This document shows positions 21,501 to 33,500 of a stretch of DNA of 64,000 bases, one piece after another. How positions within the stretch are numbered: position 1 is the stretch's first letter; each line of letters starts with the position of its first letter. The DNA is from Escherichia coli. Its GTDB lineage: Bacteria; Pseudomonadota; Gammaproteobacteria; Enterobacterales; Enterobacteriaceae. The position numbers are program-made. Location: NCBI RefSeq assembly GCF_003334405.1, contig NZ_QOWM01000001.1. The stretch is one strand, 5' to 3'.

Positions 21501-24500
21501 TTATCCGCCTGTTTACTATCCCGGAAAGCACCTGGCCGCTGGTCACCATGGTGGTGATTATGGGGCCAATCTCGTTCTGGGGGAACGTTGTCCCTCGTGC
21601 CTTCGAACGTATTGGCGGTACGGTGTTGGGGTCGATTTTAGGTCTTATCGCTCTGCAACTGGAGTTAATTTCGTTACCGCTGATGTTAGTCTGGTGCGCG
21701 GCGGCGATGTTTCTTTGCGGTTGGCTGGCGCTGGGCAAGAAACCGTATCAAGGATTATTGATTGGGGTGACGCTGGCAATTGTTGTGGGTTCCCCGACAG
21801 GTGAAATTGATACGGCGTTATGGCGAAGCGGCGATGTGATCCTCGGCTCTTTACTGGCAATGTTGTTTACCGGTATCTGGCCACAACGGGCGTTCATCCA
21901 CTGGCGCATTCAACTGGCGAAAAGTCTGACCGAGTATAATCGGGTCTATCAATCTGCATTCTCACCGAACTTACTCGAACGCCCACGTCTGGAAAGCCAT
22001 CTACAAAAACTGCTGACCGATGCCGTGAAAATGCGTGGGCTGATTGCGCCCGCCAGCAAAGAAACCCGTATTCCCAAATCGATATATGAAGGTATCCAGA
22101 CCATTAACCGCAATCTGGTTTGTATGCTGGAGTTGCAAATCAATGCGTACTGGGCCACGCGCCCCAGCCATTTCGTGTTATTGAACGCGCAAAAACTTCG
22201 TGATACCCAGCACATGATGCAGCAAATACTGCTGAGCCTTGTTCATGCGCTGTACGAAGGTAATCCGCAGCCGGTTTTTGCCAATACGGAAAAATTGAAC
22301 GATGCTGTGGAAGAGCTGCGTCAGTTGCTCGATAACCACCATGACCTGAAGGTTGTGGAAACACCAATCTATGGTTATGTGTGGCTGAACATGGAAACGG
22401 CACATCAGCTTGAGTTGCTATCGAATCTGATTTGCCGGGCCTTGCGCAAATAATTCCTGAACTTCAGAATCATCTTGCTGCTGCTTCGATTCAGCAAGGA
22501 TAAAGGGTATGATAGTGAAAAGGGATAAAAGCATTGTCATCTGCGGCAGCTATGAGTAATGTTGGCCCTAACGAATAGCGGTTGCTTAAACGAATCCGAC
22601 TCTCACATTATCAGGGGTATAAAAATGGAAACTACCAAGCCTTCATTCCAGGACGTACTGGAATTTGTTCGTCTGTTCCGTCGTAAGAACAAACTGCAAC
22701 GTGAAATTCAGGACGTTGAGAAAAAGATCCGTGACAACCAGAAGCGCGTCCTGTTGCTGGACAACCTGAGCGATTACATCAAGCCAGGGATGAGCGTTGA
22801 AGCAATCCAGGGCATCATCGCCAGCATGAAAGGTGACTATGAAGATCGCGTTGACGATTACATCATCAAAAATGCCGAGCTCTCCAAAGAACGCCGCGAT
22901 ATCTCCAAAAAGCTGAAAGCTATGGGCGAAATGAAAAACGGCGAAGCGAAGTAATTCCCGTTTTATTCAATGAGGGTTGCCCGGCAACCTTCATTGCTCA
23001 TTGATTCTTATCTGTGTATCACCGTCATCATTCTCATCTGAGAACCAATCGAAATTAACAACAGCCTTCTTCTGTATGCAGCAAGGCAAAAAGTTCTGTA
23101 ACTCCATTGTTATTAACTGCACTGGTTACTAACACGTTGTGCGCTCCAGCTTCCCGTAACCAACTTTTCACCAAAGATATTTGTTCCATGCTGGCTAAAT
23201 CTGCTTTGGTTACTACTCCAATGACCGGGTGATTCATGGCCCGGTAGGGCGTTTTTACCTCTAATTCCTGCTTCAGCGCTGAGATTCCTGCTTGTTGCCG
23301 GAAAAGCAGGCACCTGCCGTCTGAACGGTATCGATCCGGAAGCGTATCTGCGCCATATTCTGAGCATACTGCCGGAATGGCCCTCCAACCGTGTTGACGA
23401 ACTCCTGCCATGGAACGTAGTTCTCACCAATAAATAAGCGTCAATACGGTGCTCCGTTGACGCTTACTTTAATCCGTTTTCTGAGCTTAGATTTTTCTGT
23501 TCCTACCCAGACCGTGGATTTGGAATTCATTTTTTGTCAGGTCAATGCTAATCGTTAAAACGGCCATAACGCACCTCCACTGGAAGGTTTATCAGTAATA
23601 TCCTACCGTTGCTTCATGGTCGGGGCGTCCATTCCATTATTATCGGTTTTCCTTTCTGTTTATAAATGAAAACGCCAGCTGTATTCAGGCTGGCGTCAGG
23701 GGAAATGAAGCCTGTTGAGTGAGATTCACCGGTTCTGGTGCAGAAGCTGCAGATGGCGCAGGGTAAGGACATCTTCTCTTGCCTGCTTAATACAGGACAA
23801 CAGTGCTGTTTCTGTGGTTAATGGCACTATACCCTGCATCACTGCATTGTCTTACAGCAACTGGTGAGGGCTGGCATAAGTTGCCGGTGTTTCGGTAGAG
23901 TCACGGTCATCCACCACGCGGAGTGAATAACCGTTTTCAGCGGCCTTATTAATCAGTTCAGTGATATTAACACCATCAATGTCAACGACAATGTGCCCCA
24001 TATCCAGCGCCTGTACGTTAACGCTGTCGGCTTCCAGTGTCATCATTTCGCCTCCGGATACTTACCCAGGGTAATGTTATTTACCGTTCTGTAATTGTCG
24101 CGGGTCATCAGGCCGGTCGCCCTGCGAGCCCGGAGGATATCGATGCTGTTTATTAACTGAGAGCGGGTACCGGGGTATACAGCAGGGAGGGGGGCTGCAG
24201 GAAGGCAACTGGAAGGATAGGAACTGAGCGGTTCAGTCGCGGAAATCAGTTGCAGAGCTGTAATGATATCTCCGGGAGTGCTGCGTTGGTAGGGGCATCC
24301 CGGGATAGAGAAATTTTAGCACTTTGCCCTGAATGATTGTAGACGTTCCGAGTACTCGTACCGGTCTGAGTTATTACAGTTAGATATTCACTTTTTCTCC
24401 CGCATACTTCACATCTGTCAACGACGGATGAAAAGTGGTTCTTCCGCAACCTGGGTGGAAGAAAATGGATGAAACTTTCTGGCGAACAAGGATCTAAGCT

Positions 24501-30500: not shown

Positions 30501-33500
30501 AGGCTATTGGACAGATCGGATACTTTTACAGAACCGAATTTACTGAGTCGTTTCAATATTTCATGATGGCGTTCAAATTTCATGCTTCACCTCACTTCAG
30601 TTACGTTAATATCTATCGATGTATATTGATGTGATAATCACCATAAAGTGGCGGGGAAAAGCAAAAAAAAGCAAAAATAGCCTGAGAAAAGGTAAGCGTT
30701 AATGGAGAATCATATTGATGCTTATTTATTGGTGAGAACTACGTTCCATGGCAGGAGTTCATCAATACGGTTGGAAGGTTATTCCGGCAGTACGCTCAGG
30801 ATATGGCGCAGATACGCTTCCGGATCAATGTCGTTCAGAAGGCAAGTGCCGATAAGCCCATACAACAGTGCACTGCGCTCGCCGCCGAAGAACATAAAGT
30901 TTTTATTTCCGAGACAGATGGCACAAAGGGCTTTTTCCGCGGCATTATGTCTGCCTCCGCCTGACCGTCAACACTGTAATAACAGAGTGCGCCCCACTGA
31001 TTCAGTACACAGCTGAACCATTCTCCCAGTCTGGATTTTTGGATAGCGTGGCATTTTTCTCCACCATGCATGCAGTGAGTCCAGTAACAGTTTGCTCTTC
31101 TTCTGCCTGACCACAAGATGTGCTGGACTGGTAAACGATGGGGATACCTGCTTACGCGAGAGCAATAAGTGGCTGGCCACAATTCTCGGTACAAAACTCT
31201 GCTGAATAGCAGCGATTTTCCCAGCGTGGTGCGTCGTTTGCATTTTACTGGTTCTAAGTTAACAATTATCTGTTCACTAATGACTACTCTAAAAACTTGT
31301 ATCAGGACTATCACTTATTTAAGTGATATTGGTTGTCTGGAGATTCAGGGGGCCAGTCTATAAACTTTTTACAAAAGGATGAATGCAGAAGGTTACTCTA
31401 ATGGCCAGAGTGATGACAATGATGGTCAGACGTTGACCTGCAGAAACTGCATTTTAATTGGTCTATAAAGTCTGCAAGAGGAATCAGGGTCAGATCAGTG
31501 AGTCTTATCGCGGCCCGAAGCTATGACTGAAAGAAGGCTGGATACAGAATTGCAACAATTTGGCAATGTCAGAACACAGAAGCTTTGCAAGCAGGTGAAA
31601 GGTTATGTCTAGCAAAAGGAGTATATCAGAATACATCTACTGATGTACAAAACACAACAATAGCTTCATGATATATAAATACGTGATGACGAGTGGTACT
31701 CCGCATGGTTATTTAACTTCTCAGCACCACTAATGATCCTGAGCAACTTCGTATTTGGGCCATTGCCATGGAGTAGAAAGCTGTGTCTGAGAATGCAGAA
31801 TTTGAGAAAAGAATTCGCTTTCTTGGAGAGCTTCTGAAAATGGCACGCTAACAACGTTTTGTTAAAAAATGTGAATCACTTGCCGGGGCTGCATTTTCTA
31901 TTCGAGGAGAATGTTGACGTAGATATTACAGAAATCTCAGCGCATCAGGATAAACTGCTACCTTAGGTCAACCACCAAAAGAAAATACAATACGTCCAGT
32001 TTGTATGCCTTTAATAACACATCTTCTAAATGTTGAAGAATTATCCCGCCTGCTGAAGAACGTTGCTCTGAGTGTGATAAACCTTTTTATTCTTGATGAT
32101 GTCAGCGAGAAGATGGAATATATCCCCGACTGGGTCGTGGTTACCCGGTTAAACATCTGGTGGCGCTAATAAATCTGGCAAGTCACATTCTGTTGAATGC
32201 TGTGACAGTGCCTTACCGAGAGAGCGAAATTGTGGTGTTCTAGTGCATAGTCGCCACCATTCCGGATAATTCTATTGCGTTGTTTTACAAGTTCTTTTAC
32301 AGCGCAGATCTGTCGCTGACGTTGAATCAATAGCCTGGATTTCAGAACACAATGCCCGTTTGCTGGTTGGTCCGGCAGTAGCATTAATTCATTATCTGAA
32401 TGAAATGTGTCAATCCACAGAAACCGCTGTCAATGACGCATTTTGTCGGACGTTAACACGAGAAAGTCTGGCTATTCCGTAATGCCATCTTATTTCGTAA
32501 TGGATTGAGAATGCTGGATTTTTAATTATATTACGCGCAGTATTAATCGCGTAAATGTTTTGCGGTCAGCAACGGTGGGGGATCCATTGTTCTGTTCAAT
32601 GAATACCATCATACATTTGAATCAGGAGTCGGTATGATGATTTTGGTGACGGGGGGCGCACGGAGCGGGAAGAGTCGCCACGCAGAGGCGCTTATTGGGG
32701 ACTCTTCACAGGTTCTGTATATCGCTACCTCGCAAATCCTTGATGATGAGATGGCTGCACGGATAGAACATCATCGGCAAGGCCGCCCGGAGCACTGGCG
32801 CACAGTGGAGCGCTGGCAACATCTTGATGAATTAATTCATGCAGACATTAACCCGAATGAGGTTGTGTTGCTGGAATGCGTTACCACAATGGTGACTAAT
32901 CTGTTGTTTGATTATGGCGGCGATAAAGACCCTGATGAATGGGATTATCAGGCGATGGAACAGGCGATTAATGCTGAGATTCAGTCGTTGATTGCTGCCT
33001 GCCAACGTTGCCCCGCAAAGGTTGTATTAGTGACTAACGAAGTGGGAATGGGGATTGTGCCGGAGAGTCGTCTGGCACGACATTTTCGTGATATTGCCGG
33101 GCGGGTAAATCAGCAGTTGGCCGCTGCGGCAAATGAAGTATGGCTGGTGGTTTCTGGTATTGGAGTAAAAATCAAATGAGTAAATTATTTTGGGCGATGC
33201 TCTCATTTATTACGCGTCTGCCTGTACCGCGTCGCTGGTCCCAGGGACTGGATTTCGAGCATTATTCTCGCGGTATTATTACTTTTCCTTTGATTGGATT
33301 ATTGCTTGGCGCGATTAGCGGGCTGGTCTTCATGGTGCTGCAGGCATGGTGTGGCGCACCACTGGCGGCACTGTTTAGCGTGCTTGTGCTGGTGCTGATG
33401 ACCGGGGGATTCCATCTGGACGGCCTCGCTGATACCTGTGATGGCGTATTTTCTGCACGTAGCCGCGATCGCATGTTGGAAATCATGCGTGATAGCCGTT

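Follow-up and report, generated by a model that had tools for sequence, protein, structure and literature searches.

The pdu-cob region of enteric bacteria, together with its loss in Escherichia coli, was reportedly described by Lawrence and Roth in 1995/1996. We considered a 64,000 nt stretch of E. coli DNA (contig NZ_QOWM01000001.1; hereafter the window, to which all coordinates refer unless another locus is named) in which the two ends of that region can still be recognised on either side of a variable interval, as a 3′ remnant of pduV beside tmaR (yeeX) and a remnant of a cbi gene before cobUST. A difference from the region of other enterics is that even in E. coli strains that retain pdu, the cbi genes are reduced to a CbiG-like N-terminal open reading frame (ORF). 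The same interval, at 22955-32633, is listed as the cobU-yeeX site of CP4-44 and as variable among laboratory strains (PMC3032704). Part of its content corresponds to the Salmonella cluster STM3547-STM3550, whose first gene, named rikA in 2026, specifies a PfkB kinase that phosphorylates ribose, the other three genes being uncharacterised (PMC13432705). In having core flanks and a widely varying content, with at least five arrangement classes, the interval resembles the hotspots of the E. coli pan-genome. It would differ from them in that the variety appears to come mostly from differential decay and insertion sequence (IS) traffic within one inherited island rather than from repeated acquisition. 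We consider it highly likely that the interval is an eroded piece of a composite island that replaced the pdu-pocR region and was eroded differently in different lineages.

The interval extends from the base immediately after the tmaR stop codon to the base immediately before the cobU start codon. Its features (Table 1) were annotated by carrying over the RefSeq features of E. coli DLI.5a through alignment (collinear, 99.6% identity), and genome counts were taken across 5,426 complete E. coli genomes. All elements that an initial annotation of this DNA had listed were found where it had placed them, and the transferred features gave their boundaries exactly. The flanking genes, which it had called core, were matched in 5,424 of the genomes. 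Positions 22000-34000 align with complete E. coli chromosomes at 99.6-99.8% identity, and a collinear match in one piece is found in DLI.5a and AST46 only. Had precisely this arrangement been ancestral and common in E. coli, the interpretation would have changed, but it is present in only 2 of 5,426 genomes. Base composition is mosaic, as the comparison with the flanks proposed in the initial annotation had been expected to reveal: the G+C content of the segments ranges from 0.40 (the GATase1-like gene) to 0.53 (the ggt fragment), compared with 0.49-0.52 in the flanks, and the G+C content at third codon positions (GC3) is 0.36-0.45 for the four genes of the rikA cluster versus 0.58-0.61 for yeeA and tmaR.

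To establish what the interval held originally, we considered the genes that abut the flanks. The fragment known in K-12 as yoeF, which the initial annotation had placed at the edge of the prophage remnant, was located, but it is not prophage DNA. It matches positions 86-141 of the 142-position TIGR02528 (EutP/PduV) profile (E = 8e-11), and a full-length pduV gene (147 amino acids) begins at the same position beside tmaR in pdu+ E. coli. An identical TmaR protein occurs in several contexts, in three of which a complete pdu operon starts exactly at the start of yoeF. As a pdu+ reference we used strain 2014C-4423, because the region of another pdu+ strain, STEC1575, is broken by a complete Mu-like prophage located immediately upstream of pduA within the tmaR-cobU interval, at positions 1-28100 of the extracted STEC1575 locus. 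In 2014C-4423 the order is tmaR-pduV…pduA-pduF-pocR-cobalamin riboswitch-145-codon ORF-cobU-cobS-cobT. This ORF, which lies between the annotated riboswitch and cobU in the 25112-25942 section of the extracted locus and is called a 'hypothetical protein' in RefSeq, has no Pfam match, but it aligns with cobalt-precorrin-5A hydrolase (CbiG; NF004463, E = 1.6e-19) over 125 positions at the N-terminus. The 47-amino-acid stub that precedes cobU in the window matches no family by itself. An assignment of this stub to cbiP, based on the Salmonella gene order, was rejected, as the parent 145-amino-acid ORF matches the N-terminus of CbiG.

These comparisons show that the ground state of E. coli is tmaR-pduV…pduA-pduF-pocR-cobalamin riboswitch-cbiG′-cobUST. 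The ancestral interval was not empty but was occupied by the pdu-pocR region, and neither yoeF, which derives from pduV, nor yeeH, which derives from a cbi gene, is a phage gene. By the criterion of at least 80% of a 10-kb pdu stretch, 638 of the 5,426 genomes are pdu+, and 5,418 match at least part of that stretch, typically about its first 283 bases. The pdu operon, pduF, pocR and the riboswitch are all gone from the window; Rfam gave no match of any kind in the interval, and a cobalamin riboswitch is present in 2014C-4423. We found no literature linking the pdu operon with CP4-44.

The positions at which the ancestral sequence is interrupted are shared by most E. coli genomes. Alignment of the window with 2014C-4423 stops at 23237 and resumes at 32338, inside the CbiG-like 145-codon ORF. 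On the reverse complement of the 2014C-4423 locus, both the window and K-12 keep the sequence up to 1184 and resume it at 18719, again inside this ORF. The left junction, between the pduV remnant and an IS66 fragment, is found in one piece in 3,331 genomes, and the right junction, between an IS4 fragment and the CbiG-like remnant, in 3,333; approximately 3,330 genomes (61%) share both, K-12 included. The annotated limits of CP4-44 in K-12 map to 23238 and 32378 of the window. With both island junctions thus established, a single event would have replaced approximately 17.5 kb of pdu-pocR DNA, from inside pduV to inside the CbiG-like ORF. As both junctions are common to approximately 3,330 genomes, most of the variety in the interval appears to reflect decay of one shared island, plus IS traffic, rather than repeated acquisition.

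According to the mechanism that we propose, the approximately 17.5 kb of pdu-pocR would have been exchanged in one event for a composite island lacking an integrase, whose left edge is an IS66-family fragment and whose right edge is an IS4 fragment. The island would have consisted of a CP4-type backbone (the GTPase gene yeeP, cargo, a DUF932 gene, an antirestriction gene, yeeS, yeeT, cbeA, cbtA and yeeW), followed by a second part with YfjJ, zinc-ribbon genes, an ISL3 element, a ggt fragment, the rikA cluster and another IS66 fragment, and by a third part that comprises the yoeA/yoeG end.

A classical site-specific hotspot, in which P4-type prophages integrated repeatedly at an att site between tmaR and cobU and left behind what is now seen in the window, is very unlikely. 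In its favour, the K-12 region is annotated as the cryptic prophage CP4-44 with cobU-yeeX as its insertion site (PMC3032704), the genes yeeS, yeeT, cbeA, cbtA and yeeW are typical of CP4-type islands, and STEC1575 carries its Mu-like prophage inside the interval. However, no integrase gene, tRNA gene or att-type direct repeat is present in the window interval or in any version examined, and within the interval there are no direct repeats of at least 30 nt. The boundaries are instead formed by IS fragments joined directly to the truncated ORFs of pduV and the CbiG-like gene; being common to approximately 3,330 genomes, they argue for one replacement followed by decay. Mu, for its part, inserts at nearly random positions. 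The independent gains seen at the site are IS elements and a Mu-like prophage.

Some genomes lost the pdu-pocR region in a different manner. The interval is nearly empty in 567 of the 5,426 genomes. In one scar type, represented by ECZP248 (868-bp interval), the 2014C-4423 sequence is kept to 1300 and resumed at 18550 with a 5-bp overlap, and in a shorter scar, that of 2015C-3905 (458-bp interval), it is kept to 1178 and resumed at 18836. The ECZP248 scar reaches further into the ancestral sequence on both sides, in pduV and in the CbiG-like ORF, than the island type, from which it therefore cannot be derived, and the pdu-pocR segment would accordingly have been lost in at least two ways.

Several points weigh against descent of all island-bearing genomes from one replacement and subsequent decay. 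Homologous recombination in the flanks could also have spread the shared junctions between lineages; the region is close to the O-antigen locus, and large replacements by recombination that cover yeeA-yoeF-cobU have been documented (PMC5359238). The longer ends of the scar type would mean either two or more separate losses of pdu or arrival of the island in a scar with removal of 280 bp. Approximately 890 genomes fall outside the classes that we counted, with other truncation points among them.

Fuller versions of the island help to explain how the arrangement in the window arose. The locus of ETEC1716 is equivalent to that of the window plus 4,899 bp, which carry the rest of cbtA, then cbeA, yeeT, yeeS, an antirestriction gene, a truncated DUF932 gene, a truncated YfjJ gene and zinc-ribbon genes. 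Window positions 22000-24170 correspond to 2001-4171 of the ETEC1716 locus, and 24166-34000 to 9071-18906. The two blocks overlap by 5 bp (GGTAC), which indicates a microhomology deletion in the lineage of the window. The zinc-ribbon stub to the right of the junction equals ETEC1716 locus positions 9076-9320, which hold the end of a zinc-ribbon coding sequence at 8723-9132, and the matching loci in other genomes carry the annotation 'zinc-ribbon domain-containing protein'. In one piece, the cbtA/zinc-ribbon junction is found in 2 of the 5,426 genomes, DLI.5a and AST46. We also considered whether the ISL3 element had made this 4.9-kb deletion; this was rejected, as the junction lies approximately 245 bp outside the IS end and has the 5-bp microhomology.

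The fullest version found is that of EL361, whose island of 32.8 kb has both the rikA cluster and the yoeA gene of K-12. From the left, its order is tmaR, yoeF, the IS66 fragment, the DUF957 fragment, yeeW, cbtA, cbeA, yeeT and yeeS; next come antirestriction, DUF932, two hypothetical, patatin, RdcB and dynamin genes, a GTPase gene interrupted by ISCro1 and further genes; then YfjJ, two zinc-ribbon genes, ISL3, the ggt fragment, the genes for a phosphotriesterase-related protein (PTE), a DMT-type transporter and a GATase, and rikA; and finally an IS66 fragment, IS3, yoeA, the IS4 fragment, the CbiG remnant and cobU. EL361 is collinear with the window over the ISL3-cluster block and with K-12 over yoeA. 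From a structure of this kind, the lineage of the window lost the middle of the backbone and then, by illegitimate recombination, a further 4.9 kb that begins in cbtA and ends within the second zinc-ribbon gene. The yoeA stretch is likewise gone from this lineage, its DMT gene has gained a nonsense codon, and 4 bp have been deleted from its ISL3 transposase gene.

Among the genomes measured, the interval ranges from 458 bp to 32.8 kb, and it is longer in STEC1575 with its Mu-like prophage. Insertions of IS2, IS3, IS30, ISEc23, ISKpn26 and ISCro1 occur in it across strains, those of IS2, IS3, IS30 and ISEc23 in near relatives, and a collapse associated with ISKpn26 leaves an interval of 2.8 kb. 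Truncated clusters with 52%, 35% and 27% coverage each start at the joint between ISL3 and the ggt fragment. In some E. coli assemblies, proteins fuse PTE to DUF987 (yeeT), YjcZ, CbeA or a mutator-type transposase domain, and such fusions reflect further independent deletions or insertions that end in the PTE gene in other lineages.

We then compared the window with CP4-44 of K-12, which carries flu, yeeR, yeeS, yeeT, cbeA, cbtA and yeeW as annotated genes in the interval, in agreement with the initial annotation. The two share the site between cobU and tmaR and the same two outer junctions. On the left, identity to K-12 is 99.4% over 22000-24173, from yeeA to the 3′ end of cbtA, and ends at 24173. 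On the right, 31359-34000 (the yoeG region, yeeH, cobU and cobS) is 99.6-99.8% identical. Specifically, 31359-32243 matches positions 10239-9355 of the extracted K-12 locus at 99.8%, and 32240-34000 matches 8159-6399. The overlap of these blocks falls at the IS5H site of K-12, whose 4-bp target (32240-32243) is unoccupied in the window. The approximately 1.3 kb of decayed sequence reported by the initial annotation was thus located, but it is not anonymous, as 31359-32633 is the yoeG/yeeH end of K-12 (99.6-99.8%) minus IS5H. An IS2-like piece of 160 bp to its left is 95.6% identical to positions 12503-12662 of the extracted K-12 locus, 83% to the end of IS2F and 96% to EL361 locus positions 16051-16232, which adjoin an annotated transposase fragment.

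Between these blocks the two versions differ. The middle of the K-12 locus holds yoeA interrupted by IS2, yeeP, isrC, flu, yeeR, yeeS, yeeT, cbeA and the 5′ part of cbtA. The window lacks yeeP, isrC, flu, yeeR, yeeS, yeeT, cbeA, the 5′ part of cbtA, yoeA/yoeH, IS5H and IS2F, and has instead the zinc-ribbon stub, ISL3, the ggt fragment, the rikA cluster and the second IS66 fragment. It gave no match to positions 12663-19813 of the extracted K-12 locus, which contain the flu (Ag43)/yeeR cargo, and of the yeeS-yeeT-cbeA-cbtA-yeeW backbone only yeeW and 126 bp of cbtA are left. Pairwise comparison therefore shows K-12 CP4-44 and the window to be different deletion derivatives of one island. K-12 has lost the ISL3-ggt′-cluster block, has kept its cargo or exchanged it for flu-yeeR, and has gained IS5 (IS5H) and IS2 (IS2F). 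The proposal of the initial annotation that successive insertions and deletions took place at a prophage remnant is supported by the comparisons with ETEC1716, EL361 and K-12. No part of the interval works as a mobile unit today, and its intact genes are limited to yeeW and three of the four in the rikA cluster.

The flu-bearing form of K-12 is in the minority: its yoeA/yeeP junction is found in 360 genomes, many of them laboratory derivatives, and the rikA cluster in 1,905. At the level of at least 80%, this last count refers to the complete block from the ggt fragment through the cluster; 2,684 records have any piece of it at an identity of at least 99%. These numbers, and the presence of yoeA and the cluster together in the longer form of EL361, could be taken to mean that the arrangement of the window, or another cluster-bearing form, is the ancestral island and that the flu-bearing CP4-44 of K-12 arose later by insertion. 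We regard this as rather unlikely. The arrangement of the window is rare (two genomes) and clearly derived by deletion from forms like those of ETEC1716 and EL361, the main differences of K-12 are loss of the block and other cargo between yeeP and yeeS rather than a simple insertion, and pdu+ genomes show a still older state.

ORFs that overlap the IS66 fragments gave no NCBIfam matches, and both fragments were detected, as C-terminal transposase ends, by tblastn with the intact transposase of ISCro1: residues 482-523 at 23309-23434 for the left fragment, and residues 446-523 at 30946-30725 for the second. They form a 162-nt inverted repeat (23309-23470 versus 30689-30850) with 88% identity, which argues that they are not recent copies of one element. 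The termini of the two IS66 3′ ends face each other and bracket the 7.2 kb from the DUF957 fragment to rikA.

The ISL3 element stands at the joint between the zinc-ribbon stub and the ggt fragment. Its transposase was assigned to the ISL3 DDE type through NF033550 (E = 6.7e-71 for 24511-25251). The transposase frame (24511-26126) is split into three ORFs; RefSeq marks it with an 'internal stop', and in the window 4 bp are additionally missing at 25239. The ends of the element, 24415-24457 and 26134-26176, form 43-nt terminal inverted repeats with 81% complementarity. Elements of the ISL3 family generate a direct target-site duplication of 8 bp. No such duplication was found here, as the flanking octamers differ at both candidate pairs of ends, and inverted repeats without a target duplication fit a joint between unrelated DNAs. 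The annotated transposase has 540 codons and is approximately 100-170 longer than the ISL3 profile. The middle ORF (25215-25883) is a better match for the N-terminal helix-turn-helix (HTH) of IS21-family transposases (NF033546, E = 4e-14) than for ISL3. These features suggest that the transposase contains an inserted or chimeric DNA-binding segment.

Beyond the ISL3 element lies what the initial annotation called a four-gene operon. Four genes are indeed located there, but just three are intact, as the DMT gene carries a TGG-to-TAG change at position 27933, in codon 203. The products correspond to those of STM3547-STM3550. The RikA-like protein matches the ribokinase model TIGR02152 (E = 3e-83, under the curated cutoff) and has an AgaR-type HTH at residues 3-61. 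Of the RikA residues that have been discussed, Met90 (internal) and Asp343 (catalytic) (PMC13432705), both are conserved at the same numbering. The GATase1-like protein matches PF07090 and the structure 2gk3, a 'putative cytoplasmic protein' (E = 7e-145). PTE matches PF02126 (determined on the identical gene in another E. coli locus), and its closest solved structure is that of Proteus Pmi1525 (3rhg, E = 5e-174); it has 87% amino acid identity to Citrobacter. In general, the four proteins have 79-95% identity to Salmonella and Citrobacter counterparts, with values for S. diarizonae of 81, 83, 95 and 85% for rikA, the GATase1-like gene, the DMT gene and PTE, respectively.

The cluster is found in the same order (rikA-GATase1-like-DMT-PTE) at Salmonella, Citrobacter, Budvicia and Proteus loci by alignment and tblastn. 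It has been described as conserved in Citrobacter, Escherichia, Budvicia and Proteus (PMC13432705), and in our scan of species-representative genomes it occurred in Salmonella, Citrobacter, Klebsiella, Budvicia, Providencia and Proteus. The likeness to STM3547-STM3550 thus includes the four genes, their order and their position beside ggt. The difference is that here the genes are island cargo with a 294-bp ggt stub, flanks of IS fragments and a transporter pseudogene, and do not reside at the native ggt locus.

The ggt stub provides information about the source of this segment. The locus is collinear with that of S. diarizonae and with three Citrobacter loci from upstream of rikA into ggt, at approximately 76% nucleotide identity, and the continuous alignment into ggt indicates that the stub is a piece of the original neighbourhood of the block. 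Up to the stop codon, the stub shares 92.2% identity with the 3′ end of K-12 ggt, compared with 80-82% with ggt of Salmonella and Citrobacter. Beyond this stop codon the homology to the K-12 ggt locus ceases, and in K-12 yrhB follows. Because the stub resembles Escherichia ggt, the source was probably a chromosome of the Escherichia lineage, from which the ggt′-rikA segment would have been captured as island cargo. The stub has 22 substitutions, 14 of them at third codon positions, a distribution suggesting that some of the divergence dates from a time when another lineage carried the gene in working form. In the proposed sequence of events, the segment would have been cut inside ggt at the ISL3 element and then carried by the island.

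A recent horizontal transfer of the ggt′-four-gene block from Salmonella or Citrobacter, where it is chromosomal, would be consistent with the identical gene order, including the adjacent ggt, in S. diarizonae and Citrobacter species, and with the lower GC3 of the four genes compared with the E. coli flanks. We nevertheless consider it extremely improbable. Nucleotide identity to these genera is only approximately 76%, the ggt stub is far closer to E. coli ggt (92%) than to theirs (80-82%), and the best PTE homologue outside E. coli has 88% identity (S. bongori), with nothing in between.

It is possible, albeit doubtful, that the block is the Escherichia-lineage copy of an ancestral ggt-adjacent enterobacterial operon that was lost from its native site and kept as island cargo. 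Two findings count against the Escherichia-lineage source proposed above. The cluster is absent from the representatives of other Escherichia species in the species-representative genome scan, and no donor of the ggt′-rikA segment was found, the nearest non-E. coli PTE protein being that of S. bongori and nothing outside E. coli being closer than 87-88% protein identity.

The condition of the cluster varies among strains. Relative to EL361, the tryptophan codon at 27932-27934 of the DMT gene is replaced by TAG (W203*), and the gene is intact in EL361 and AVS0542. Among 2,038 genomes with this stretch, the exact 81-mer around the stop occurs in 597 and is missing from approximately 71%, with the mismatch of the 98.8% identity class at the 81-mer being verified in EL361 and AVS0542 only. 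The cluster has been inactivated independently in EL361, through Q81* in rikA at 12240-13454 of the extracted EL361 locus, and all four genes are intact in AVS0542. If the block is indeed a retained Escherichia copy, then the intact cluster of AVS0542, the approximately 71% of carriers without the DMT-stop 81-mer and the presence of the cluster in about one-third of genomes would point to selection for a catabolic function. As a guess by analogy alone, a furanose lactone or ester might be taken up, 5-phosphorylated and hydrolysed.

The CP4-44 site was already known, nothing here departs from the known decay of genome islands, and the findings matter little beyond good annotation. In this respect, the CP4-44 of K-12 becomes one eroded version of a larger composite island at the former pdu-pocR site, with junctions shared by 61% of genomes. 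A place in E. coli is also found for the rikA cluster, which lies within this island, is invariably accompanied by a ggt stub and in many cases is intact. Natural knock-outs of the DMT gene (this window) and of rikA (EL361) beside intact strains could be used to find the function of the cluster.

Table 1. Features of the tmaR-cobU interval and its flanks in the window.
Feature	Position	Strand	Basis
tmaR (yeeX), left core flank	22625-22954	+	RefSeq transfer; same 109-aa (amino acid) protein in all contexts examined
pduV′ (K-12 yoeF), 3′ 183 bp	23055-23237	-	TIGR02528 match
IS66-family 3′-terminal fragment (K-12 yoeD), left island junction	23238-23470	+	ISCro1 tblastn; RefSeq 23300-23437
DUF957 gene fragment	23726-23818	-	RefSeq pseudogene in DLI.5a and ETEC1716
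yeeW (DUF5983), intact 64-codon ORF	23852-24046	-	ORF list; WP_000988600.1
cbtA′, 3′ 126 bp of CbtA toxin gene	24043-24168	-	RefSeq pseudogene, 'missing N-terminus'
Deletion junction, 5-bp microhomology GGTAC	24166-24170		ETEC1716 alignment
Zinc-ribbon gene 3′ stub and spacer	24171-24414	+	ETEC1716 alignment
ISL3-family insertion sequence, defective	24415-26176	+	Transposase pseudogene 24511-26126
ggt′, last 294 bp, one 1-bp deletion	26205-26498	+	K-12 ggt alignment; RefSeq 26206-26498
Phosphotriesterase-related amidohydrolase gene (STM3550 counterpart), intact	26538-27572	-	PF02126
DMT/YdcZ-type transporter gene (STM3549 counterpart), W203*	27575-28540	-	Comparison with EL361
GATase1-like gene (STM3548 counterpart), intact	28597-29355	-	PF07090
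DeoR-HTH and PfkB kinase gene (Salmonella RikA/STM3547 counterpart), intact	29369-30583	-	TIGR02152
Second IS66-family 3′-terminal fragment, inverted relative to the first	30689-31117	-	tblastn; RefSeq pseudogene 30779-31117
IS2-like (IS3-family) fragment	31145-31304		K-12 and EL361 alignments
Decayed island end, yoeG pseudogene region	31359-32141		K-12 alignment
IS4-family transposase fragment, right island junction	32142-32330	+	RefSeq pseudogene
CbiG-like ORF 3′ end (K-12 yeeH region)	32339-32482	+	RefSeq 'cobalamin biosynthesis protein' fragment
cobU, right core flank	32634-33179	+	ORF and RefSeq annotation

Elsewhere in the window, four tRNA-Asn(GTT) genes are located downstream of cobUST-ldtA, at 36064-36139, 38473-38548, 40297-40372 and 54676-54751. 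In 2014C-4423, one of these tRNA-Asn genes is followed by an island, at 9550-18836 of the extracted locus, that carries an RHS element and two integrase genes and to which alignment gave no counterpart in the window. Rfam matches outside the interval include the his operon leader and the small RNA STnc240, at 11841-11964 and 14703-14777, respectively. The interval lies approximately 11 kb from the his operon and hence near the O-antigen region, a known zone of large recombinational exchange.

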